Assembly (NCBI GenBank): GCA_965231015.1
Contig: OZ246408.1
Location: 921,908 to 985,907, forward strand
Source of the DNA: an uncultured Gammaproteobacteria bacterium
GTDB lineage: Bacteria; Patescibacteriota; Patescibacteriia; UBA9934; CAZDDW01
Direction of reading: 5' to 3'
Length of the DNA: 64,000 nucleotides
Made by a program: the position numbers and the translations under genes. Below, in pieces: positions 29,393 to 48,502 of the stretch (position 1 is the stretch's first letter; every line of letters starts with the position of its first letter). The notes beneath the pieces were generated by a model. The model was not told the DNA's origin, searched no databases, and saw only the letters and a program-made list of their open reading frames with translations.

Positions 29393-30214
29393 CTACAACG
29401 GACTCGCGATATTGCGGACCGCCGGATTGGTCACATGCGTGTAAACTTGCGTCGTCCTGATATTCTGATGCCCGAGCAAAGCCTGCACATACCGCACATC
29501 AACGCCGTTCTCAAGCAGATGAGTAGCGAAAGAATGCCGGAGCGAATGAAACGTGGCCGGTTTTTTTATATCCGCGTGATTAAGCGCGTGCTCAAATATT
29601 TTCTGGGCCGTTCTTTTGGTAAGCTTGCCGCCGCGCTGGCTTTCGAACACCAGCGCGTCGCTGTCCCTGCCAAGACAAAGCACTCGGAGCGGTTCAACGA
29701 GCGAATCCGGCAACACACTGATCCGGTCCTTTTTGCCTTTGCCCTGCCTCACGAATACGGTTTTGCCCTCAAGATCGAGATCTTGAACGCGCACAGCCAC
29801 CGCTTCGCTGACGCGCAGACCGGCGGCGTAAGCGAGGCCAATTAAAGTCCGGTGCTTGAGGTTACGGATCGTCCCGAGCAGGCGCAAAATCTCATCGCGA
29901 GTGAGCGTACTCGGCAAACGCTTAGGCCGTTTAGCGTACGGCAATTTCAGGTCAAACGACCTCCCGAGCAAGTTACGCGCGTAAAACATAATCGCCTGCA
30001 AATGCAGATTAATGGTCGAAGCCGCCGCATCGCCATCATGCTTGGCCAGTAAAAACGACCCGAGCTCGTCATGGTCAACGCGATTCGGATCCGGATATTC
30101 CAAAAAAAATGCTTTTAGCGATCCCAGGTACGACTTTCTGGTCGCCGGACTGTAGTTTTTGAGCTTCAGAAAACGATCAGTCGCCTCCAGAGCCTCGGAG
30201 GTTGAAACAAACAT
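29393..30214 (-). CDS. tyrosine site-specific recombinase (Xer-like; candidate integrase of adjacent cassette array). ORF opens at 30349 but MFVSTSE start at 30214 is more plausible
   Basis: R-H-R-Y catalytic set: GLRVSEA (box I), HSLRHSFATHLL (box II), LGHQNIRTTQVYTHV; only about 90 aa between boxes so no IntI-specific insert. Confidence 0.8.
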   Translation of the reverse strand: MFVSTSEALEATDRFLKLKNYSPATRKSYLGSLKAFFLEYPDPNRVDHDELGSFLLAKHDGDAAASTINLHLQAIMFYARNLLGRSFDLKLPYAKRPKRLPSTLTRDEILRLLGTIRNLKHRTLIGLAYAAGLRVSEAVAVRVQDLDLEGKTVFVRQGKGKKDRISVLPDSLVEPLRVLCLGRDSDALVFESQRGGKLTKRTAQKIFEHALNHADIKKPATFHSLRHSFATHLLENGVDVRYVQALLGHQNIRTTQVYTHVTNPAVRNIASPL

Positions 30215-30240
30215 AAGATTATGCTTAAATAAACAAAAAT

Positions 30241-30260
30241 CTCCCCTCGATTGTGGGGAG
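30241..30260. promoter_or_regulatory. hairpin ctcccctcgattgtggggag immediately upstream of recombinase start; candidate operator/attI-proximal element
   Basis: perfect 6-bp stem 27 nt upstream of the ATG on minus strand. Confidence 0.25.
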
Positions 30261-30382
30261 TCTAAATTTAAGGTAACATAAGTTTGTGCTTTTGTAAAGG
30301 GGTTGTACCTCACAAATATCCCCAAGCCGCATAATCTACAGCATCCCATCCTTTATCCGAACTTTACTTCACATATAAACGA

Positions 30383-30421
30383 GTTGTGGCGAAATCGCTT
30401 CGCTCCTTCGCCACAACGGCC
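30383..30421 (+). repeat. 37-nt hairpin module gttgtggcgaaatcgcttcgctccttcgccacaac (copy 1)
   Basis: identical copy at 33059..33097; starts with GTTGTGG core. Confidence 0.7.
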
Positions 30422-30546
30422 GGCGGCTACGCCTTTTGTTGCGCTCGTCGCTACGCGACATCGCACAACAGTCAGCTATGCGGACATGGCCCGTCGACGA
30501 GCAAGCTCGTCTCCGGACCACGTCGCATAGCCGCCGGCCGTTATAT
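30411..30546 (+). repeat. attC-like site A (R'' CCACAAC, 15-bp arms ggccggcggctacgc/gcatagccgccggcc, R' GTTATAT then GAAAT)
   Basis: imperfect inverted repeat with AAC...GTT boundary cores seen directly. Confidence 0.6.
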
Positions 30547-30580
30547 GAAATAAATTTTTAAAAATTAACTCCGTAAAATT

Positions 30581-30955: not shown

Positions 30956-31100
30956 ACATAACAGCGTGTATCTGGTTCGGCAGATTTGACGCAATTAGAT
31001 TCAAAAGGAATGTCAAATCAGCCTCTCCCAAATTTCGCAAAAAACTATTAGATTTTCAAAGGAGTTTTTGCGAAACTTCAGATACACGCGGACGTTGTGG
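30956..31100 (+). repeat. attC-like site B (R'' ACATAAC, arms agcgtgtatctg/cagatacacgcg, R' GTTGTGG then CGAAAT)
   Basis: 12-bp near-perfect inverted arms immediately inside AAC/GTT cores. Confidence 0.65.
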
Positions 31101-31134
31101 CGAAATAATGAAAAATTCTTTTGCCCTATTGGGC

Positions 31135-31164
31135 AAATTTAATCGGGGCAATTTTTATTCATTT
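31135..31164. repeat. left copy of perfect 30-bp inverted repeat atttaatcggggcaatttttattcattttt
   Basis: reverse complement present at 32338..32367; brackets the ANT-like gene. Confidence 0.85.
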
Positions 31165-31173
31165 TTAACGCAT

Positions 31174-32349
31174 ATGAAGGGCATTAAAAAATACACACAC
31201 GAAGAAAGAGAAGCGGTTCTTTATGAAATGGTTCCGCTTATTAAGCGCAAGTTTGGAAAAAATCTTTTGGCTATTGCCGCGCGCGGATCATTTGCACGAA
31301 ACACAGATTTGCCATATTCCGATTTAGAGCTTTTTGCTTTCTTGAAAGAAATGCCACGCGGCCAGAAAAAACTTCCTTACGCAAAAATGCATAAAATCAG
31401 AAATGGCCTTTCTGTAGAGCTTATCTGGATTACTGAAAAAACATACATTAACGAAGTTAAAGAAGTTAACGGATCTTGGTTTGGTGTTGGCTCGGAAAAG
31501 CTCTTGCCTGTCTACGGTAAAAAATTCATTGACAAATTGAACCGACACAAGCCAAAGAATGTAAAACAAAAAGCTCTGGAACAAGCGGCGGCATTATGGC
31601 CGGGCATTTTCTTTTCAAGCTCTGCTGTTATAAAGATCGCGGAACAAAAAGATCATGAAAAGGTCGCCCTTGCCATGTATCACATGTTTGAAAACATTTT
31701 GAATTTTTTAGCATTTATCAACCAATCGCCATATTCAAGTAGCTCGCAAAAGATTATTGAATCCAAAAAATTCAAAATTAAGCCAAAAGATTTTTCAAAA
31801 CTACAACAACTGATACTTCATGGGGATTTTCGAAAATATACCGAGATTCAAAAATTAACAGCAAGCGTTGTTAAGGATCTAAAGGCATATCTCCAAAATG
31901 CAGGCTTTGAACCAAGCGAAGATCTTGTTAGTAAAAAACGACCCGACCAATTTGGTATGAAAGATAAAACGACTCGTTACGAGCAGGCCGTGGAGATATG
32001 GGAAAAGGTCCAAGAATCCACGACCAAAACCCTTAATGCCGCTGAAACAAAAAACAAAGAAGGTATGGCGACCGTTATTAATGACATGTTTTTTCAGTAT
32101 CTAAAAATTCTGTCCTGCCTGAATACAAAAACCTTAAGATTTTCACAAATCATCACCGACGCGAAAAAATTGAAATACAAACCGGCAGGATTCTCCAAGC
32201 TGATTAGAATTATCGAGAATGGAGAATACGGCCAATTTGTTGAGATCAAAAAAGTTGTCATGAGCGTTTTTGCTGGACTCGAGAGCAAACTTGAAAAGTT
32301 AGGATATGAATTCTATCAAGATAATGTAGATCCGAATAAAAATGAATAA
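31174..32349 (+). CDS. aminoglycoside 4'-nucleotidyltransferase-like (ANT(4')/KNTase family) with tandemly duplicated C-terminal helical domain, cassette 2 (ORF opens 31108)
   Basis: EEREAVLYEMVPLIKRKFGKNLLAIAARGSFARNTDLPYSDLELFAFL closely parallels KNTase REERMKIVHEIKERILDKYGDDVKAIGVYGSLGRQTDGPYSDIEMMCVM; residues about 185-300 and 305-413 are paralogous. Confidence 0.75.
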   Translation: MKGIKKYTHEEREAVLYEMVPLIKRKFGKNLLAIAARGSFARNTDLPYSDLELFAFLKEMPRGQKKLPYAKMHKIRNGLSVELIWITEKTYINEVKEVNGSWFGVGSEKLLPVYGKKFIDKLNRHKPKNVKQKALEQAAALWPGIFFSSSAVIKIAEQKDHEKVALAMYHMFENILNFLAFINQSPYSSSSQKIIESKKFKIKPKDFSKLQQLILHGDFRKYTEIQKLTASVVKDLKAYLQNAGFEPSEDLVSKKRPDQFGMKDKTTRYEQAVEIWEKVQESTTKTLNAAETKNKEGMATVINDMFFQYLKILSCLNTKTLRFSQIITDAKKLKYKPAGFSKLIRIIENGEYGQFVEIKKVVMSVFAGLESKLEKLGYEFYQDNVDPNKNE

Positions 32350-32367
32350 AAATTGCCCCGATTAAAT
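32338..32367. repeat. right copy of perfect 30-bp inverted repeat (overlaps ANT-like stop codon)
   Basis: aaaaatgaataaaaattgccccgattaaat = reverse complement of 31135..31164. Confidence 0.85.
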
Positions 32368-32403
32368 AATTCGCTATCGCGAATTAAGAATTTTCATTAC
32401 ATC

Positions 32404-32490
32404 GTACAACAGCGTGTATGAGACTACGGCTTTTTACAAAAGCCTCCGCCCAAATTGCTACGCAACTTCGCATACACGCGAACGTTAACT
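32404..32490 (+). repeat. attC-like site C (R'' GTACAAC, arms agcgtgtatg/catacacgcg, R' GTTAACT then GAAAT)
   Basis: seen directly; 87 bp. Confidence 0.65.
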
Positions 32491-32720: not shown

Positions 32721-32945
32721 ATGACGGGACTCGAAAATCTACTCAAACCAAATATACTCGATCACCTTCGTCAATCATCTTTGTACTATTATACAGTAGT
32801 TTACGCATTAATTGCGCTAATACGGTCTGGCTATCACGGCGGTCTCGGAGAAGCATACATGCTAATTGGATTGGCAACTTCAGTATGGGCGATTATTGTT
32901 AATGCAATTTTTTTGTATAAACGACGTAAGGCAAACATCAGCTAA
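32721..32945 (+). CDS. small 2-TM membrane protein, cassette 3 (possible frameshifted longer form from 32524)
   Basis: 74-aa ORF; upstream frames encode MHLLKKIISPILYVAFLAPVFIGTIAVIAF and ...EFTIGLSSFILTGLPEVFISFIAIGGLLFWLANKL which join with a 1-nt shift near a tttt run at 32611. Confidence 0.4.
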   Translation: MTGLENLLKPNILDHLRQSSLYYYTVVYALIALIRSGYHGGLGEAYMLIGLATSVWAIIVNAIFLYKRRKANIS

Positions 32946-33065
32946 CACTGCGTATGCGGTTACGGCTTGCTCCGTGCCTCCGCAAGCCTCCACCCATATT
33001 TGCCACTGCTACCGCTTCGCGATATTATAGCAGTGGCAAACATCGCCTATTCACGGACGTTGTGG
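32940..33065 (+). repeat. attC-like site D (R'' AGCTAAC overlapping stop codon, internal stems ccactgcta/tagcagtgg and ggcttgc/gcaagcc, R' GTTGTGG then CGAAAT) followed by hairpin module copy 2 (33059..33097)
   Basis: seen directly. Confidence 0.55.
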
Positions 33066-33152
33066 CGAAATCGCTTCGCTCCTTCGCCACAACGGCCAAT
33101 AAATTCTTTTTATTTATAATTTGGGGGAGTTTTATTCTCGCTTCGTAAAAAT

Positions 33153-34503: not shown

Positions 34504-34620
34504 GCCTAACACAGAATATGCGGTTTCACTCCCGTTGGTCGCTACACCCATATTTGCCAGAGGTCGCCCTTCGGGCATATTATACCGCTGTCAAACATCG
34601 CATACTGCGGAACGTTAGGC
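34504..34620 (+). repeat. attC-like site F (R'' GCCTAAC and R' GTTAGGC perfectly complementary; arms cagaatatgcg/cgcatactgcgg; then GAAAT); possible extra degenerate core GTTGCAC at 34477
   Basis: seen directly; 117 bp. Confidence 0.7.
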
Positions 34621-35390: not shown

Positions 35391-35455
35391 ACTTAACAAG
35401 GATTATGAGGAAAATGGCTCGGCTCGGCATTTTCCTCATAATCCTGACGTTAGGA
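35391..35455 (+). repeat. attC-like site G1 (R'' ACTTAAC, perfect 18-19-bp arms aaggattatgaggaaaatg/cattttcctcataatcct, R' GTTAGGA)
   Basis: seen directly; 65 bp. Confidence 0.7.
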
Positions 35456-35529: not shown

Positions 35530-35866
35530 GAAATAACTAAAAATATATTACTTATAATTAAACATAACGATATGCCAAATCTAATGGACATATGTGAGTC
35601 TTTAGCTCAAGAAGGAAGACTTGCACAAAACTACGTATAATTTCAAAAAACCGTAAAGGATAAAGGAGGTAAGGCCAAGTTTGGAGAATTATCAAAGCTA
35701 TCTGAAAAACAAATGGAAATTTTACTCGATCTTATTAAAGAAGGAAATTGGCCCAACCAGAAAGGTTAGGTCAGCTGTTTACCAGCCGACAATTGCGACC
35801 ACAACTTGGGAATCTAATCACAAAGATTCCCTTTTTTTATTTCTAAAAAAATTGTATAATGGCCTT

Positions 35867-36403
35867 ATGAAATGGAAAAAACTAAGCTCTAAAATAGTTT
35901 ATAAAAACCCTTGGTTACAGCTAAGGGAAGATACAGTAATTCGCCCTGACGGCAAAAAAGGGAAATATGGTATTGTTGAACGGCCGCCTGTAAATTTTAT
36001 CATCGCTTTAGACAAGGGGGGATCAATTTTTTTTATTAAAGAATACAGATATCCAATAAAAAAAACTATCTTACAGCTACCAGCTGGCACCACGGATAAA
36101 AATAAAAGTGCTCTAACTTCCGCCAAACAAGAACTTTTTGAAGAATCAGGATTAAAGGCTAAAAATTGGAAAAAGATTGGTAAGTTTTATATCGGCCCGG
36201 GACACGAAAGTATTTACGCCAATGTATTTCTAGCAACGGAACTAATTTTAGTAAAAAATAAATTGGATCGGCCGGGAGATGAGTTAATATTTAAAGTCAT
36301 AAAGTTGCCTATTGTAAAAATCAAACAATTAATAAAGTCTGATAAAATTGAATGTGGTATAACGCTGGCCGCTTTAAATTTATATTTTTCAAAAAATAAA
36401 TAA
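35867..36403 (+). CDS. NUDIX hydrolase (ADP-ribose pyrophosphatase-like); ORF opens at TTG 35681 preceded by strong SD aaaggaggt
   Basis: Nudix box TSAKQELFEESGL; typical N-terminus MKWKKLSSKIVYKNPWLQLREDTV; TTGTATAAT extended -10 at 35854. Confidence 0.7.
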   Translation: MKWKKLSSKIVYKNPWLQLREDTVIRPDGKKGKYGIVERPPVNFIIALDKGGSIFFIKEYRYPIKKTILQLPAGTTDKNKSALTSAKQELFEESGLKAKNWKKIGKFYIGPGHESIYANVFLATELILVKNKLDRPGDELIFKVIKLPIVKIKQLIKSDKIECGITLAALNLYFSKNK

Positions 36404-36423: not shown

Positions 36424-36465
36424 AGAGGGATCAAAATTATCATATTCTGGTCCCTCGTATTTTTT
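36424..36465. terminator. bidirectional terminator between NUDIX and radical SAM genes
   Basis: agagggatca...tggtccctc hairpin with aaaaa before and gtatttttt after. Confidence 0.6.
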
Positions 36466-37939
36466 AACCAGCCTCGAAACAAAATGGCTGGTCAGATGGC
36501 TCAATACCAATCTGATAGTCGTCAGCCAACTTCTCCAATAATGCATTCAAGGAAATCTGACCGGGCATACAGAATTTACAGTGGATGCCTAGCTCTTTAC
36601 CGGCAGCACTCCGCATAATGTCGGAAAAATTACAACCATCGCTGATTTGGCCAAGAACGTATTCTCGTGGTGACTTAGAGCGAGTATACGGCTCTCCAAT
36701 GGAATCGCAGGCTCCCACAATACCGAAAGGATCAATTGCCGGTCTTATTACTGGAATTAAGCAACGCTTTGGTTGCGTCAATTCCATCTCTCCCCATTTG
36801 TCCATCGCAATCAGGAGATCATCGGCAAATGACACACTGAAACCCAGCTGACCATTTTCGATTTGAGAACGCAATTCACGCAAACTTTCAAGCATTTCCT
36901 CATATTGATAACTTGAAAGTTCTCTGGTTACACCGATACAGTCCACCCTCACATCAAGGAAATCAATTTCAAGATCGGAACAAAGTTTCGCCACACCGGC
37001 TACTTCTGCATAGTTTAACTCCTGTAAAACTATACCTATCCCAACCTTCAACCTTTCACCTCGTTGCTTTTTGAGAGCCACGATTTTTCTTATCCCGTTC
37101 AGCACGGCTTCCAAATCATTGGCTCCCAAGGAGCGATTGATAAGTCTTGAATAAATCTCTGGTGTCGCCGCATGTATACTGATTCTCAACCAAGTAGAAC
37201 TTAAGACGGAATCTAGTAACTCTTGATTTAAGCCACAAAGCGTCCGGCCATTGGTGTAAATCATGGTTTCAAGACCAATGGAGTTAGCCTTGTCTAGAAC
37301 CGGCTTGATCTTGGCTTGCGACAGCAAGGTTTCACCACCACCAGAGAATATAATCTGCCTGGTGCCTAAACCTTTTACCTCCTCCAAAATCTTGCACCAT
37401 TGATCTGGCGTGAGCAAGCGCTCTGCCCCATAAAAGTCAGCGACAGGATTTCTTTGCTTTTGGCCACCACACCAAATGCACATCTGACACCTATAAATGC
37501 AAATGGCGTCAGTGGGATGAATTTCCAGCATCATGGGTCCTACTATTTCTCCCCGCAGGATTTTAGGCAAATATTGAGAATTTTGCCGCATGAAACCCAG
37601 TAGGTTCGTGGCAGATTTGATTAGCAAAGATCTTGGATACTGATTGCTCAGAAATACCGCCTTTGCTAGTTTTGACTCCCGCATAAAACGATGTGTAGAC
37701 AACAACTCGTCTCTCGAAATTTCCTTGTGACGCAAGATTGATTTTGCTTTACGCGCTGGGTCAAAGAAATATTCAACCAAGACAGAAAAAGTCAAGCCAA
37801 ACGATTTGTCATTTAAAACAGTCTCTACACCCATAAATAACTCATAGGCTTGACCTTCGGCTTCGTCAAGGTTGATAAGACCATCGTGAAAACGATGCAT
37901 TATATCAACCAACTTTGCAACAGCACTGTTCTCTAACAT
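36464..37939 (-). CDS. radical SAM protein with about 130-aa N-terminal extension; function unknown
   Basis: Cx3Cx2C (CIYRCQMC), GGE-type motif FSGGGETLL, C-terminal Cys pairs (HCKFC). Confidence 0.8.
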   Translation of the reverse strand: MLENSAVAKLVDIMHRFHDGLINLDEAEGQAYELFMGVETVLNDKSFGLTFSVLVEYFFDPARKAKSILRHKEISRDELLSTHRFMRESKLAKAVFLSNQYPRSLLIKSATNLLGFMRQNSQYLPKILRGEIVGPMMLEIHPTDAICIYRCQMCIWCGGQKQRNPVADFYGAERLLTPDQWCKILEEVKGLGTRQIIFSGGGETLLSQAKIKPVLDKANSIGLETMIYTNGRTLCGLNQELLDSVLSSTWLRISIHAATPEIYSRLINRSLGANDLEAVLNGIRKIVALKKQRGERLKVGIGIVLQELNYAEVAGVAKLCSDLEIDFLDVRVDCIGVTRELSSYQYEEMLESLRELRSQIENGQLGFSVSFADDLLIAMDKWGEMELTQPKRCLIPVIRPAIDPFGIVGACDSIGEPYTRSKSPREYVLGQISDGCNFSDIMRSAAGKELGIHCKFCMPGQISLNALLEKLADDYQIGIEPSDQPFCFEAG

Positions 37940-38192: not shown

Positions 38193-38221
38193 TCCTCCTT
38201 CGCTAAAGCTTCGGAGGACAG
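38193..38221. repeat. 29-nt hairpin repeat tcctccttcgctaaagcttcggaggacag (copy 1, inserted into a G2-like repeat)
   Basis: identical copy at 44972..45000; flanking sequence taggacgccatcgcgagc identical to 35452..35469. Confidence 0.75.
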
Positions 38222-38334: not shown

Positions 38335-40020
38335 TTAAAACAGCCAGTTCAGCAAATAGCCGATAATTATTATTCCTACAGTCACTAAACCGAAAAAGGT
38401 GACAAGTAACTGCCATTTAAGCACTTTTTTTAAAATCAACCCCGCGGGAAAAGAAAGCCCGATCACCCCCATCATAAAAGCGATTGCCGTTCCCAAAGGC
38501 AAACCTTTGGCCACTAAGGACTGAATCACGGGAATAATGCCGGCCGCGTCAGCATACATGGGAACCGCCAAAACCGCCGCCACAGGAACCCCTAAATACC
38601 CCGCCTTTTCCAAGTACACCTCAAAAAAACCTTCCGGTACATATCCGTGAATGACAGATCCCAAACCAACACCAACCAAAATATACAAACCGATTTTTTT
38701 AATGATCCCAAAAGCTTCTTGAGAAATTTTAGGAAAAATTTTTGCGAGCGGCTCTGTTTTTGTTTCCGATTGATTTTGCGTTGGCGCGTGAACTTTCCAC
38801 ACAAAATCTTCCACATACTTTTCCATTTTCAATTTTCCTAAAATAAAACCACCCAGCATGCCAATCGTAATGCCGGCCAACACGTAAGCCACGGTCACTT
38901 GCCAACCAAAAATACCAAGAAACAGGGCAATAGAGACCTCATTAACCAGCGGAGAAGTGATAATAAAAGCAAAAGTCACCCCCAGAGGGATGCGAGCTTC
39001 TAAAAAGCCAATAAACAGCGGGATGCTGGAACAAGAACAAAACGGGGTCAAGGCTCCAAAAATACTGGCGAAAAAATAATCCAATCCGAATAGTTTTTTT
39101 TCGGTTAAGAAATTCCTTAATTTTTCAACCGGCAGATAATATCGTAGCGCGCTTACCAAATGCATAATGACCAACATCAACGCGAAAATTTTCAAAATAT
39201 CGTAAATGAAGAATTGTACACTGTGCCCAAGGCGTGATCCCGCTTCAATATTGAAAATGGAAAAGGTCACCCAGTCAGCAAAAACCTCAAACGGATAAAA
39301 AATATCCAACTTTTCCACGCCAAAAGTATACTTGAGGTAATACAAGCCGGTGCCGATAAAAAGAAAAGCAACCATATATCTGAGCCATTTTTCTATTTTT
39401 CTGGTAATCTGATACGCCTGACTCATTTTTTGCAGACTGAAAACCATAAGGCCGGCAAAAATCGCCACCGGCAGACCGGTGCCAATGGCAAAAACCGGGG
39501 CCAGTAAAATTCCAGCGGTTGATTTTAAAATCAGCGGTACGAGCATGCCAAAAAACAGTACTCCGCTATAAGGACAAAAAGCCAAAGCGAAAATCATCCC
39601 CAAGCCCAGTGAACCCAAGTAGCCTTTACCCGAAAGCCACTGTTTGAATTTTTCCCATTTTTCACTTTTGACATTAAAATTTATTTTGAAAACTCCCAGC
39701 ATAAAAAGCCCCATGACAAGCAACACTGGAGCGAGTAGTTTTTCGCCCCAGCCCTGAAAAATCCCTGAAACAGTAAAAGAAGAAAGTCCGAGAAAAATCA
39801 AACCGGCAACCAAGGTATATGAGACTCCCCGACCGATGATATAAAACAGCGCGTTCAGGAGTGTATTTTTGGCGGTTTTTATGTCTTTAGACAAAAAACC
39901 AACCGCGGCGATATTGGTCGCCAACGGACAAGGACTGATGGAAGTCAAAATGCCCAAGAGAAATGCCGTCAAGAGCGGAATGTTATATGAATCGATCAGT
40001 AAATTAATCAGGTTTTCCAT
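38335..40020 (-). CDS. fusion membrane protein: N-terminal CcdA/DsbD-like domain + C-terminal DUF318/ArsP-like permease
   Basis: ISPCPLATNIAAVGF (CcdA-type Cys) and TPFCSCSSIPLF (ArsP-type TPFCSCS motif); 561 aa, more than 12 TM segments. Confidence 0.7.
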   Translation of the reverse strand: MENLINLLIDSYNIPLLTAFLLGILTSISPCPLATNIAAVGFLSKDIKTAKNTLLNALFYIIGRGVSYTLVAGLIFLGLSSFTVSGIFQGWGEKLLAPVLLVMGLFMLGVFKINFNVKSEKWEKFKQWLSGKGYLGSLGLGMIFALAFCPYSGVLFFGMLVPLILKSTAGILLAPVFAIGTGLPVAIFAGLMVFSLQKMSQAYQITRKIEKWLRYMVAFLFIGTGLYYLKYTFGVEKLDIFYPFEVFADWVTFSIFNIEAGSRLGHSVQFFIYDILKIFALMLVIMHLVSALRYYLPVEKLRNFLTEKKLFGLDYFFASIFGALTPFCSCSSIPLFIGFLEARIPLGVTFAFIITSPLVNEVSIALFLGIFGWQVTVAYVLAGITIGMLGGFILGKLKMEKYVEDFVWKVHAPTQNQSETKTEPLAKIFPKISQEAFGIIKKIGLYILVGVGLGSVIHGYVPEGFFEVYLEKAGYLGVPVAAVLAVPMYADAAGIIPVIQSLVAKGLPLGTAIAFMMGVIGLSFPAGLILKKVLKWQLLVTFFGLVTVGIIIIGYLLNWLF

Positions 40021-43392: not shown

Positions 43393-44878
<1,486 letters not shown>

Positions 44879-44971: not shown

Positions 44972-45000
44972 TCCTCCTTCGCTAAAGCTTCGGAGGACAG
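44972..45000. repeat. 29-nt hairpin repeat copy 2 in 16S downstream spacer
   Basis: identical to 38193..38221. Confidence 0.75.
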
Positions 45001-45372: not shown

Positions 45373-47820
45373 TCAGGTTTTCGCCGGACCTGAGTTACTG
45401 GAAGGATCATTGTCGTCGTCGGCCGAGTTGCCGCGACGCTTGGACGTGGACTCCGAACCGAGTGAACTCGACTCCTCGATCGAGCCGGAGTCGCCGTAGA
45501 CCGGCAACTCTTGAGCTTCAGTACCGTACTCGGGCATCCCCTCAGTCGTAGCCGCGGCCATGCTGGCCGAGTCATCAGGCTCGTCTTCGTCCGGATCAAC
45601 CAAGGATTGTTCCGAGGTATCCGGCTCGCCTTCGAGCTCGATGCTGCCGTCCGGATCGTGATACGACTCCTCGTCCGAGGGAACAAGCGCGATGCGTTGT
45701 TCCTGACTCGGCGTGCCAAGCGTAGTGTCCTCCCTCACACTGCCCTCGTCGATCTCCTCGGCCACGTCCGTGATGGGCGGTGGCGTGGGATCGACCATGA
45801 CCGGTGCCTCGACCTCTCGGTGCGAAAGCCCGGAGATGTCACGGGTTGGTGGAGGGGTGTCGACCGCTTCGTCCACAGTATCGAGATGAATCGGTGGAGC
45901 CGAATCTCCGACACTCGACTCGTCGTCTTCGTCCTCCGGACACCGACTCGGTCGCTCCTCGGTGGTATCACCCTCGAGTTCCGACTCCGGTTCAATTCCC
46001 GGTTCCGGAATTGGAATGCCGTCCTCGATCGCCTGCAGGCTGGCCGAAAGCGGTATCTCGGGCAGCTTTCCCCTGAAGCGAGGATGCTGCGGCGGCTTGG
46101 CCTCCGGGTCAGACGCATCAACGGTCTGCTCGGAAGGGAGATCCGAAGTGGTGAGCATCTTGAACTCATCAGACTCCGCCTCGTCTCCCTCACCTCCGGA
46201 CGGATCCGAGCTACTGCTCGAATCCGACTCATCAAACGACGAGGGCATGCTCATCATGGCAATCTCCTCGTCGGAGTTGGGCGGACCGTCATCCCGGAAG
46301 GCCTCTCCCTCTTCGTACTCGTCCAGTTCCCCAGCCGGAATGGCCGGTGGTGGAGCGGGTAGTTGCACGAGGGTGAAGTTGATCTTGGTAAGATCAAACT
46401 CTCGGGAGGTGATCTCGGCCTCGATCCTCATCATGGCTTCAACCATAGCCTCGCACAAGTCGATACTGCGGTTGATCGCGATCTTCTGAGCATCTGTGAA
46501 GAAGTCAAACACCTCACTGGCTTCGCCCTGCGGCAGAGCCAGATACACGGCCATGGCCGCGTTATCGAGGCATGCCAACTCTTCGAACTGACGCCGCGAG
46601 GTCGCGGTCGTGGTGCGACCCACGTGCTCGATGATGTCTGCGTGAGGCTGACGTACCGTAGCATGGTACAGGTGGAAGGCATAACGCGCGAACTCGTCGA
46701 GCTCGGAGCATTGACTGTCGGTGAGGGTCTGCTCCGGACTCTGCCGGCCAAGGATGCGCACGATGTCCGCCGGACGGATCATACGCAGATCCATCTGCCG
46801 GGCCACCCGAGCAAACACGTCCGGGTTGTGCTGGTACACGCGGCGCAGGAACTCCACGAGCTCCGGCGCCGAGTAGAACTCGAACGTCCAGACGAGCAGG
46901 CGTACCCACGTATTCAGGAGACGTGGTGGCAGCTCCTGGGGAGACCAGAACGGTTCACCCTGGGAGATGTACATGGCCGTACGGATAGTATCCGACCAAG
47001 GCACGTGCACAGCTGTCACAGCCGGCCGGATTCCGAGAGCCGGATCGATCCCGATCTCGGCCATCACCTGACGGTAGGCGTGATCGACCCCCATGAGGTC
47101 GTACCCCTGGGTAGCAAACACGAAACCGTTTAGATCCCCTTCCTGGTGCAAGAACGGGCTCACCGCCTTGAAGGGCTGGTGTAACTCTGCGGCCTGCAGG
47201 AACGAGACCCGCGTTTCTTCACTCGGTGCAGCGAGCGCCGTGAAATGGCGGGTCATCTCCGGGGATTGGATCCGGGCGAGCGTCAGCACAGCGTCGTCTT
47301 CCGTGTACACCCCAGTGCCGAACCGTCCCGTTGCAGCGTACCCGGGCAATTCCCGCTCGGTCATGATCTCCCGAATCCAGCCGGTCATTTGCCGGTTGAA
47401 CTCCTCGGGCTTCAGCGCCCCGGTCGACTGATCGATCGACATCATGGCGATGTACTCCAGCAGCTGACCAATGGCCGCCTCCTGAAGCTGCATGATGCTA
47501 GCGATCTCGCGGGCCTCGCGCCGGCGGTTCGTATCACGAATCAGCTGGGCTCGCAGGAAGCGCATGCGCTTGGCCTGCTCACCAATGAGGTTGCGATAGA
47601 AGTCCGGGAGTTCGATTCCCTGCTGCTCGGCCAGTCGGTACACCAGATCCGAGAACTCGTGATCCGGATCCCCGGCCGGGCGGTGCGCGATGATGCGCGG
47701 GTCGATAAGCGGTCGGGCACCGTTGATGACCCCGAGCTCCTTGAGGGCCTCGACGAGGTCATCGCCGAGGTAGTGCCGATATACGGCTTCCACTTCTTCG
47801 TTTCTGTCCTGCTCCAACAT
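45373..47820 (-). CDS. hypothetical 815-aa protein in about 63% GC island; folded N-terminal about 500 aa plus about 320-aa acidic S/D/E/P-rich disordered C-terminus
   Basis: single long minus-strand ORF spanning the island with its own terminator; plus-strand ORFs are Arg/Leu-rich antisense artefacts. Confidence 0.6.
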   Translation of the reverse strand: MLEQDRNEEVEAVYRHYLGDDLVEALKELGVINGARPLIDPRIIAHRPAGDPDHEFSDLVYRLAEQQGIELPDFYRNLIGEQAKRMRFLRAQLIRDTNRRREAREIASIMQLQEAAIGQLLEYIAMMSIDQSTGALKPEEFNRQMTGWIREIMTERELPGYAATGRFGTGVYTEDDAVLTLARIQSPEMTRHFTALAAPSEETRVSFLQAAELHQPFKAVSPFLHQEGDLNGFVFATQGYDLMGVDHAYRQVMAEIGIDPALGIRPAVTAVHVPWSDTIRTAMYISQGEPFWSPQELPPRLLNTWVRLLVWTFEFYSAPELVEFLRRVYQHNPDVFARVARQMDLRMIRPADIVRILGRQSPEQTLTDSQCSELDEFARYAFHLYHATVRQPHADIIEHVGRTTTATSRRQFEELACLDNAAMAVYLALPQGEASEVFDFFTDAQKIAINRSIDLCEAMVEAMMRIEAEITSREFDLTKINFTLVQLPAPPPAIPAGELDEYEEGEAFRDDGPPNSDEEIAMMSMPSSFDESDSSSSSDPSGGEGDEAESDEFKMLTTSDLPSEQTVDASDPEAKPPQHPRFRGKLPEIPLSASLQAIEDGIPIPEPGIEPESELEGDTTEERPSRCPEDEDDESSVGDSAPPIHLDTVDEAVDTPPPTRDISGLSHREVEAPVMVDPTPPPITDVAEEIDEGSVREDTTLGTPSQEQRIALVPSDEESYHDPDGSIELEGEPDTSEQSLVDPDEDEPDDSASMAAATTEGMPEYGTEAQELPVYGDSGSIEESSSLGSESTSKRRGNSADDDNDPSSNSGPAKT

Positions 47821-48158: not shown

Positions 48159-48318
48159 TCTCTCCTCTCCTCGAGAAGCGTTTCGCAGGCGTATTCCTAC
48201 TGACACTTCTACATATATATTTCATCATATTCTAGGCAAAAAGTCAATCATTTTATGCTCAATTTAAGCAAATTTGGCTAAAATAAAGAAAAAACTAGCC
48301 GTTAGGCTGATTCTTCAA

Positions 48319-48373
48319 TGGTGCCGAGGGTGAGAATTGAACTCACGACACGAGAATTTTCAGTCCTCTGCTC
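48319..48373 (-). pseudogene. partial duplicate (3' about 55 nt) of tRNA-Phe
   Basis: ggggagcagaggactgaaaattctcgtgtcgtgagttcaattctcaccctcggcacca matches 3' two-thirds of adjacent tRNA-Phe with 2 mismatches; 5' part absent. Confidence 0.65.
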
Positions 48374-48427
48374 CCCCGCCATCTTCATGCTTGGCGGGAT
48401 ACCACTCGCAATAAAAAATGACTCCAC

Positions 48428-48502
48428 TGGTGCCGAGGGTGAGAATTGAACTCACGACACGAGGATTTTCAGTCCTCTGCTCTACCACTGAGCTACCTCG
48501 GC
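48428..48502 (-). tRNA. tRNA-Phe (anticodon GAA)
   Basis: GCCGAGGTAGCTCAGTGGTAGAGCAGAGGACTGAAAATCCTCGTGTCGTGAGTTCAATTCTCACCCTCGGCACCA cloverleaf. Confidence 0.9.

Follow-up and report, generated by a model that had tools for sequence, protein, structure and literature searches.

A kanamycin nucleotidyltransferase-like protein with a duplicated C-terminal domain, encoded by an integron cassette of a Patescibacteria genome, is a probable single-chain pseudo-dimer

The 64,000-nucleotide stretch of contig OZ246408.1 between positions 921,908 and 985,907, referred to here as the window, was found to carry an integron gene cassette encoding a 391 aa protein related to kanamycin nucleotidyltransferase (KNTase), in which a single nucleotidyltransferase (NTase) domain, N, is followed by two tandem copies, C1 and C2, of the helical C-terminal domain. 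This N-C1-C2 arrangement is genuine, recurs in other proteins and represents an architecture of the KNTase family that had no name, and no description of KNTase-like proteins with an N-C-C arrangement was found in the literature. A probability of about 65% is assigned to the reading that the protein is an active pol-beta-type nucleotidyltransferase of the KNTase lineage in which an obligate homodimer has been turned, by duplication of the C-domain and subfunctionalisation of the copies, into a single-chain pseudo-heterodimer with one active site. The gene and its parts are:

31095-32484, plus strand: gene cassette of 1390 bp with a single open reading frame (ORF), lying between the G/TT recombination points of two attC sites
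31108-31173, plus strand: in-frame upstream extension of a 413 aa ORF, 22 codons, probably not translated (homologues start at M23), containing the 5' arm of an inverted repeat
31174-32349, plus strand: coding sequence of the KNTase-like N-C1-C2 nucleotidyltransferase, 391 aa, stop codon included
31174-31554, plus strand: N-domain, residues 1-127, predicted pol-beta-type NTase fold with G38, S39, R42, S49, D50, E52 and E82
31555-31908, plus strand: C1, residues 128-245, degenerate helical copy, assigned to the own-subunit (cis) position
31909-31971, plus strand: conserved C1-C2 linker, residues 246-266, K-K-R-P-D-x-F-G-M-x-D
31972-32346, plus strand: C2, residues 267-391, ancestral-like helical copy

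The ORF 31108-32349 (plus strand, 413 aa), for which a first-pass annotation had given a length of 391-413 aa, is indeed present, and the lower figure is the right one. Judged from the starts of the homologues, the true start is almost certainly ATG 31174, as MKGIKK at the position of M23 forms the N-terminus in 18 of 21 near-full-length homologues and M23 aligns with M1 of KNTase. The 22 upstream codons, which include the repeat arm, read as conserved in a few database proteins because that arm is conserved as DNA at other loci; P0007 and P0008, two database proteins with similar N-terminal extensions, probably carry the same start miscall. Residues are therefore given in the 391 aa numbering, which within the N-domain coincides with that of KNTase (E82 = KNTase E76). 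A promoter scan detected no promoter-like site at the 5'-end of the cassette, upstream of the coding sequence.

The N-terminus, GSFARNTDLPYSDLE, aligns with GSLGRQTDGPYSDIE of KNTase. The close N-terminal likeness noticed in the first pass was confirmed by phmmer and by NCBIfam ANT_4p_I matches, except that the GS and R of the motif are separated by two residues and not by one. In a phmmer search of the PDB, KNTase chains were the only matches (E=2e-7), with residues 21-124 aligned to the KNTase N-domain and residues 346-400 aligned weakly to KNTase 192-246. Pfam KNTase_C (PF07827) was matched in two stretches with 36.8 bits, above its gathering score of 26.4, while the match to NTP_transf_2 was sub-threshold; a match of C2 to YpoC (27.3 versus 27.0 bits) was dismissed as helical-bundle noise. 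The best NCBIfam model was the equivalog for aminoglycoside nucleotidyltransferase ANT(4')-I (ANT_4p_I, NF033061; E=4e-18), although its 65.8 bits fall far below the cut-off of 350, and ANT_4p_Ib and ANT_4p_Ia gave 40.6 and 29.8 bits, both against a cut-off of 500. Structural alignment with KNTase gave about 19% identity.

A word-indexed search returned 103 relatives, one of them identical. Twenty-three are long forms (P0002-P0024; 48-86% identity, mostly 390-393 aa), and about 75 are ordinary relatives of 250-290 aa (30-56% identity) with N and one C-domain; all homologues carry PF07827. An exhaustive HMMER search over 1.84 billion cluster representatives found 130 family members in all, hence the family is small, and among GTDB species representatives just two carry the long form. 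Wherever a long form has a source name, it is entered as a 'hypothetical protein', from Uhrbacteria, from the Patescibacteria group or from one Elusimicrobia-binned contig. The short forms (about 256 aa; P0025-P0028, P0032 and about 70 others) belong to the same clade, are nearly co-linear with the N-domain and C2 of the long form, occur as integron cassettes too (locus L008) and are in some cases labelled 'kanamycin nucleotidyltransferase' by JGI. Their single C-domain has both the E-x3-K helix and the P-Y-x-T loop, which suggests that they are homodimers.

The two C-domains of the window protein are true paralogues. Residues 158-274 and 292-407 (413 aa numbering) share 40 of 117 positions (34%, BLASTP E=1e-19); the first-pass annotation was thus right about the duplication and quoted a correct peptide pair, while its boundaries (185-300 and 305-413) are shifted, and the second helical domain is not an unrelated one. 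The meaning of the duplication follows from the architecture of the KNTase active site, to which one subunit contributes S39, R42, S49, D50, E52 and T187 and the other contributes E145 and K149 (PMC4631478); E145 is the catalytic base, and E76 is able to substitute for it (PMC6361787). For a single chain that mimics this dimer with one N-domain, the prediction is that the T187 loop is all that is required of the copy in the own-subunit place, and the E145/K149 helix all that is required of the copy in the partner's place. This partition was observed in an alignment of 22 long forms (the window protein and 21 homologues) with 75 short forms and KNTase, at the following KNTase positions:

E145: E in 75/75 short forms and in 22/22 C2 copies, 0/22 in C1 (F in 18)
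K149: K in 75/75 short forms and in 22/22 C2 copies, 1/22 in C1
N152: N in 71/75 short forms and in 22/22 C2 copies, 1/22 in C1
Y185: Y/F in 75/75 short forms and in 22/22 C1 copies, deleted in 22/22 C2 copies
T187: T/S in 75/75 short forms, S/T in 22/22 C1 copies, 0/22 in C2 (R in 15, K in 6, G in 1)

In the window protein, C1 keeps N183-x-x-P186-Y187-x-S189, equivalent to KNTase Y185/T187, and has F147, A151 and K154 in place of E145, K149 and N152; its P-Y-x-S/T loop is kept in 22/22 long forms. C2 has Q280-E281-x3-K285-x-L-N288, equivalent to E145/K149/N152, together with E370 and Y381, and has lost the P-Y-x-T loop (R322). An unbiased tally of all 21 C-domain columns conserved in at least 90% of the short forms gave the same picture: 6, all in the fold core (L, L, N, P, L, G), are retained by C1 and C2 alike, 10 survive in C2 only, including Q-E-x3-K-x-L-N-A, N294, S314, F366, E370 and Y381, and 2 in C1 only (P186 and F200), T187 as S/T being likewise confined to C1. 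G38, S39, R42, S49, D50, E52 and E82 of the N-domain are invariant in the 22 long forms. All residues of the KNTase nucleotide/Mg2+ site are thus present, five in the N-domain, S/T189 in C1 and E281 and K285 in C2, each in 22/22. Within the linker F260 is invariant, and D258, G261 and D264 are nearly so.

A neighbour-joining tree separates C1 and C2 into two monophyletic groups and joins C2 with the C-domain of the closest short forms (P0025-28, P0032) as its sister. C2 also evolves more slowly, with a mean identity of 71% versus 58% for C1. On this comparison of sequences, C2 resembles the ancestral catalytic domain and lacks only the cis loop, and C1 is a stripped-down copy with the fold and the cis loop. 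The loss of E145/K149 from C1 and of T187 from C2 argues against two active sites. That most family-conserved positions have gone from C1 would also be expected of a decaying or non-functional duplication product; this explanation is hardly credible, given 23 proteins with intact ORFs from many samples and with identities down to 48%, invariant catalytic residues, a conserved C1 loop and linker, and a very confident fold prediction.

AlphaFold2 models were obtained from the 23 long forms (predicted local distance difference test, pLDDT, 92.8; predicted template modelling score, pTM, 0.89) and from 99 sequences (pLDDT 96.2, pTM 0.92; all five models 96.1-96.2). DSSP assigned an identical arrangement to both, namely a five-stranded NTase domain (1-127), helical C1 (128-245) and helical C2 (267-375), plus short strands at 259-261, in the linker, and at 320-322, in the C2 loop that stands in place of P-Y-x-T; in the models these two strands probably pair with each other. 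A pTM this high for three domains means that their mutual arrangement is confidently predicted. Foldseek placed KNTase chains on top of the PDB matches (E down to 1e-12), with TM scores normalised to KNTase of 0.82-0.86 over 260-266 contiguous columns that correspond to N and C1, whereas ANT(4')-IIb reached 0.52-0.59, LinB about 0.47, monomeric AadA 0.33-0.42 and Hailong HalB at most 0.46. This pattern indicates that N-C1 retains the open, extended, partner-requiring shape of the KNTase protomer and not the closed shape of AadA. The structure prediction proposed in the first pass yielded a compact and confident single body whose N+C1 part matches the KNTase protomer (TM 0.84), C1 following on from N without a break in a match of 264 columns, and from this compactness and the residue pattern we infer the placement of C2.

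The mechanism proposed from these data begins with the tandem duplication of an ancestral KNTase-type C-domain. C1 would have remained in its own C-domain place, supplying only the P-Y-x-S/T loop, while C2, carried on the conserved 21-residue linker, would most likely occupy the place of the partner's C-domain and supply the Q-E-x3-K-x-L-N helix. The chain, as a monomer, would then have a single complete composite site, the other site of the ancestral dimer having disappeared. As the chemistry-defining residues are all present, the enzyme is most naturally predicted to pass a nucleoside monophosphate from NTP-Mg2+ to a hydroxyl of the bound substrate. The first-pass suggestion that a duplicated C-domain could make a single-chain pseudo-dimer is therefore well supported, by the reciprocal loss of E145/K149 and Y185/T187, the compact AlphaFold models and the match of N+C1 to the protomer.

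A similar solution was met in the metagenomic KNTase-like tandem protein P0183 (535 aa), which belongs to another, more KNTase-like subclade (ANT_4p_I 147 bits) and has an N-C-N-C arrangement. Its N1 is intact and its N2 degenerate (S39P, R42A, S49G, E52D); its C1 has K149M, N152D and S at 187, and its C2 keeps E145, K149 and N152 with T187N. Read from its sequence, P0183 appears to be an independent parallel, a covalently fused pseudo-dimer with one intact site formed by N1, C1 in cis and C2 in trans, its asymmetry having arisen after the fusion, which differs from the window protein in keeping a degenerate second N-domain.

Several points weigh against the single-chain proposal. P0183 is a singleton, and the search found no further independent N-C-N-C case. 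The reciprocal loss is lopsided, C1 having lost far more than C2, which fits C1 as a mere spacer too. The trans placement of C2 depends on residue logic and on the pTM and compactness of the model, and a single-chain AlphaFold model would be compatible with oligomers. In addition, the basic charge of the protein and the position of non-cassette copies beside NUDIX, NTase and 2H-phosphoesterase genes may mean that the substrate is no antibiotic.

The long form might still be oligomeric, with C2 completing the site of another chain in a domain-swapped dimer, or C2 might be a new binding or regulatory module outside the active site. KNTase and LinB are obligate dimers (PMC4631478), domains of the HEPN/KNTase_C clan habitually dimerise (PMC3548836), and AlphaFold modelled one chain only. 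Nevertheless, the compact single chain has a pTM of 0.89-0.92 with the conserved linker confidently placed, the loss of E145 and K149 from C1 (0/22 and 1/22) would leave no gain from a symmetric dimer, and the catalytic helix of C2 is invariant, which speaks against a purely regulatory role; such arrangements are considered quite improbable.

Among known systems, KNTase itself (ANT(4')-Ia; PDB 1KNY, 1KAN, 6NMK, 6UN8) is the closest, in the N+C1 fold and in G-S-x2-R ... S-D-x-E, E76, the E145-x3-K149 helix and the Y-x-T187 loop, each of which is found somewhere in the window chain, under the same composite-site logic. It differs in being an acidic protein of 253 aa with a single C-domain and two sites, whereas the window protein is basic, has 391 aa and a second C-domain, and is predicted to have one site. 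AadA, or ANT(3'')(9) (PDB 4CS6, 5G4A), is a monomeric aminoglycoside nucleotidyltransferase composed of an NTase and a helical domain (PMC4631478), and so resembles the proposed enzyme in acting as a single chain; AadA, however, became a monomer in that its two domains close over the cleft, whereas the window protein keeps the open protomer, with the cleft presumably filled by the duplicated domain. Two-component MNT/HEPN-type nucleotidyltransferases (such as HI0073/HI0074; Pfam clan CL0291) likewise combine a pol-beta NTase domain with substrate-binding helical domains of the KNTase_C/HEPN type, which pair up, but their parts are separate polypeptides, and their HEPN partner often bears an Rx4-6H RNase motif that is absent from the window protein.

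As regards the substrate, a small molecule with a hydroxyl group is the best guess, as would suit a detoxification gene carried on a cassette. The first-pass annotation had named the protein a candidate aminoglycoside-modifying enzyme. A genuine ANT(4')-type resistance enzyme, of whatever quaternary structure, would be consistent with ANT(4')-Ia/KNTase as the nearest named family and the nearest solved structures, with the retention of all nucleotide-binding and catalytic residues, and with an integron-borne gene that lies beside cassettes of the glyoxalase/bleomycin-resistance and isochorismatase families and, in L005 and L008, of GNAT acetyltransferases. Some clade members are moreover fused to a C-terminal GNAT domain (the short forms P0101, P0119 and P0160), like bifunctional aminoglycoside modifiers. 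A Rosetta-stone link to GNATs was tried and rejected: the fused GNATs are generic (RimI-like top match), the neighbouring GNAT cassettes of L005 and L008 show no specific relationship to them (E=3.8 and 0.004), and this takes weight from the comparison with bifunctional modifiers.

Charge speaks against an aminoglycoside substrate. The window protein has an isoelectric point (pI) of 9.57 and a net charge of +21, opposite to KNTase (pI 4.76, net -18), and 20 of the 22 long forms lie at pI 9.5-10.1 with net charges of +18 to +30, the sister short forms being basic too; the ORFs of the window have a median pI of 5.66, hence the basic charge is not a bias of the host. Two long forms are acidic (pI about 5.3), and the short forms range from pI 4.6 to 10.1, so that charge is not constant across the family and the argument weakens the aminoglycoside claim without excluding it. 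Pedersen et al. are said to have described, in 1995, drug-binding residues of KNTase that include the acidic E67, E76, E141 and E145. Among the drug ligands on this list only the catalytic E76 and E145 are invariant; E67 is replaced by K, V or L, K74 by S or L, and E141 is semi-conserved in C2 (E/Q/D/H). Neither the complete acidic drug-binding set of that list nor an acidic protein was found. With 65.8 bits against the 350-bit cut-off of ANT(4')-I, 30-41 against 500 for Ia and Ib, and about 19% identity to KNTase, the candidacy put forward in the first pass is not supported by these comparisons, and an aminoglycoside-resistance label is unproven and somewhat unlikely to be correct.

Alternatively, the enzyme could nucleotidylate an anionic macromolecule or metabolite, such as an RNA or tRNA end, a protein or a nucleotide-linked compound, in an MNT-type stress, defence or nucleotide-metabolism role. 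The net charge of the 20 basic long forms points in this direction, as do the place of KNTase_C within a HEPN-related clan, a weak PADLOC match to PDC-S09 (E=2e-4) on the NTase motif region, weak structural matches to Hailong HalB, the NUDIX, NTase, 2H phosphoesterase and Mur ligase neighbours of non-cassette copies, and a NudE-like NUDIX hydrolase gene at the end of the array. It is, however, an unlikely proposal, slightly more so than a true resistance enzyme, as acidic proteins (pI 4.6-5.3) include two long forms and many short ones, KNTase outranks every other structural match by a wide margin (TM 0.84 versus at most 0.46 for HalB) and E76 and E145, a pair characteristic of hydroxyl activation in KNTase, do not vary. 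Reading of the sequence found the HEPN motif Rx4-6H in neither C1 nor C2, and PDC-S09 was the only PADLOC match, so that the placement in an MNT/HEPN family envisaged as an objection in the first pass did not materialise.

The gene has the make-up of an integron gene cassette, an apparently promoterless ORF followed by an attC site, in an array beside an integrase gene on the other strand. The sites that delimit it and the recombinase are:

29393-30349, minus strand: IntI-like tyrosine recombinase (Pfam Phage_integrase, 156.9 bits, and Phage_int_SAM_4), adjoining the attC array
30956-31100, plus strand: attC of the preceding (glyoxalase) cassette, beginning with CATAAC and AGCGTGTATCTG and ending with CAGATACACGCGGAC and GTTGTGG
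32405-32490, plus strand: attC of the KNTase-like cassette, R'' TACAAC ... R' GTTAACT, recombination point between G32484 and T32485

The best NCBIfam model for the recombinase is the integron integrase TIGR02249, with 205.2 bits in two stretches against a cut-off of 265, followed by XerA/integron integrase (187.8 versus 220); both scores stay below the cut-off, and by its sequence the protein is probably a divergent IntI-like enzyme. Six attC sites were defined on the plus strand by reading and folding, from ..AAC / GTT.... boxes and dyad symmetry (30411-30548, 30956-31100, 32405-32490, 32941-33065, 34505-34620, 35391-35455). The R' box GTTGTGG (31094-31100) of the glyoxalase attC sets the 5' boundary of the KNTase-like cassette, whose own attC recurs in L003 (89% identity) and, nearly unchanged, in L005; these two independent integrons carry the same cassette. 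The window is chromosomal (GyrA, FtsH, SMC, RpoB, RpoC, 16S rRNA), and its RpoB shares 83-87% identity with proteins of Candidatus Uhrbacteria, so that the earlier notion of integron cargo in an uncultivated lineage holds. No description of cassettes of this kind in integrons of the Candidate Phyla Radiation (CPR) was found in the literature.

The window integron and those of L003 and L005 carry the gene as a cassette among others of detoxification type (glyoxalase family, isochorismatase family, hydrolase, GNATs). Elsewhere the gene is not a cassette: in L006/L007 it is a fixed chromosomal gene with a 4-nt overlap with a Mur ligase gene, near gyrA and rpoBC, and in L002 (4946-8221) it stands in an apparent operon of NUDIX, small NTase, long-form and NUDIX genes. 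In L001 it adjoins a 2H phosphoesterase gene, and in L004 it lies near another NTase gene. The last ORF of the window array (35681-36403) encodes the NudE-like NUDIX hydrolase mentioned above, and a functional association of the long form with nucleotide-X hydrolysis is possible.

Some further details of the cassettes were recorded. An exact 39-nt repeat, GTTGTGGCGAAATCGCTTCGCTCCTTCGCCACAACGGCC, itself a hairpin, starts two cassettes (30383-30421 and 33059-33097), and 30383-30542, directly after the integrase gene, is seemingly a mini-cassette devoid of an ORF. A promoter-like TTGCCA-N17/18-TATTAT (10/12 matches) occurs at 33000-33028 and 34554-34583, in two related attC sites, on the cassette-coding strand. 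In L003, an 89%-identical copy of the last 60 nt or so of the gene with its 3' arm and attC (2207-2414) follows the intact gene at a distance of about 870 bp, with an extra ORF (MENIIKEGL..., shared with L004) in between, which suggests a rearrangement or insertion inside the cassette.

A second feature of the array is that each cassette ORF has its own bracketing inverted repeat:

31137-31167, plus strand: 5' arm of the perfect 31-nt inverted repeat that brackets the KNTase-like coding sequence, 100% complementary, ending 6 nt before ATG 31174
32337-32367, plus strand: 3' arm of the same repeat, overlapping the last four codons and TAA
30537-30569/30933-30965: inverted repeat of the glyoxalase cassette, 33 nt, 88%
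33119-33137/33679-33697: inverted repeat of the HD cassette, 19 nt, 95%
33824-33849/34429-34454: inverted repeat of a 198 aa ORF, 26 nt, 92%
34622-34638/35323-35339: inverted repeat of the isochorismatase cassette, 17 nt, 94%

The 31-nt repeat is identical in the independent integron L005 and is kept in L001 with 2 compensatory changes. More perfect repeats of 13-17 nt are nested in the coding sequences, concentric on a common midpoint (midpoints computed by hand). The window as a whole has 16 perfect long-range repeats that reach 13 nt or more, and 13 of them fall within 30.4-35.4 kb, against 0.9 for the whole window in shuffles. Minimum free energies (MFE) of folding, expressed as z-scores from a small number of mononucleotide shuffles, were -4.6, -5.4, -11.6, -5.4, -14.9 and -6.0 for the cassettes and -1.7 for the last ORF, while six of seven control genes lay between +0.2 and -1.3 and the seventh, a radical-SAM gene, gave -4.1. 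That gene (36464-37939, minus strand) lies just outside the array; its z of about -4 was obtained on the plus strand, and its MFE is lower on its own strand. Its neighbour, a permease gene (38428-39530), contains two perfect 14-16-nt inverted repeats.

The enrichment of repeats recurs in the related integrons L003, L004, L005 and L008 and not in the non-cassette copies L001, L002 and L006. Identity to the window at third codon positions (L003, L004) is 81-93% inside the arms versus 45-52% outside, which implies selection on the nucleotide sequence. The fold-back may be an extended attC hairpin of the circular single-stranded cassette, or may serve mRNA processing or translation control, both being candidates. 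No description of such a cassette-wide fold-back in integron cassettes was found in the literature, in which no search aimed at fold-backs was made. A joint interpretation would hold both that duplication freed the enzyme from a dimeric two-fold pocket, giving a basic single-site enzyme acting on an anionic, non-aminoglycoside substrate, and that the nucleotide-selected fold-back yields rod-like single-stranded DNA circles or highly structured mRNAs; taken together, this is tentative and rather doubtful.

Other observations concern the rest of the window. After the 16S rRNA gene (43394-44878) no 23S rRNA gene or other Rfam family was detected up to 48320; the stretch that follows the 16S rRNA gene is GC-rich (53-61% versus about 43%) and contains an 815 aa ORF (45373-47820, minus strand) with neither a Pfam nor an NCBIfam match. 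An exact 29-nt repeat occurs at 44972-45000 and 38193-38221, and a 61-nt direct repeat (95%) at 48313-48482 covers a complete tRNA (48431-48502) together with a tRNA match at 48322-48380 that is weak (30 bits) and looks truncated.

Should the proposed arrangement hold, the long form would be a natural example of how an obligate homodimer with shared sites becomes a single-chain pseudo-heterodimer, through duplication and reciprocal loss of catalytic residues, and AadA would have reached the monomeric state by a different route. For resistome surveys it matters that domain-level annotation calls members of this clade 'kanamycin nucleotidyltransferase', although their scores fall below the curated ANT(4') cut-offs and their charge is opposite; counting the clade among aminoglycoside resistance genes in CPR or environmental integrons is for these reasons unsafe. 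The fold-back structure could bear on cassette folding, recombination and expression, and an anionic substrate, if that proposal were true, would mean a new activity spread by CPR integrons.

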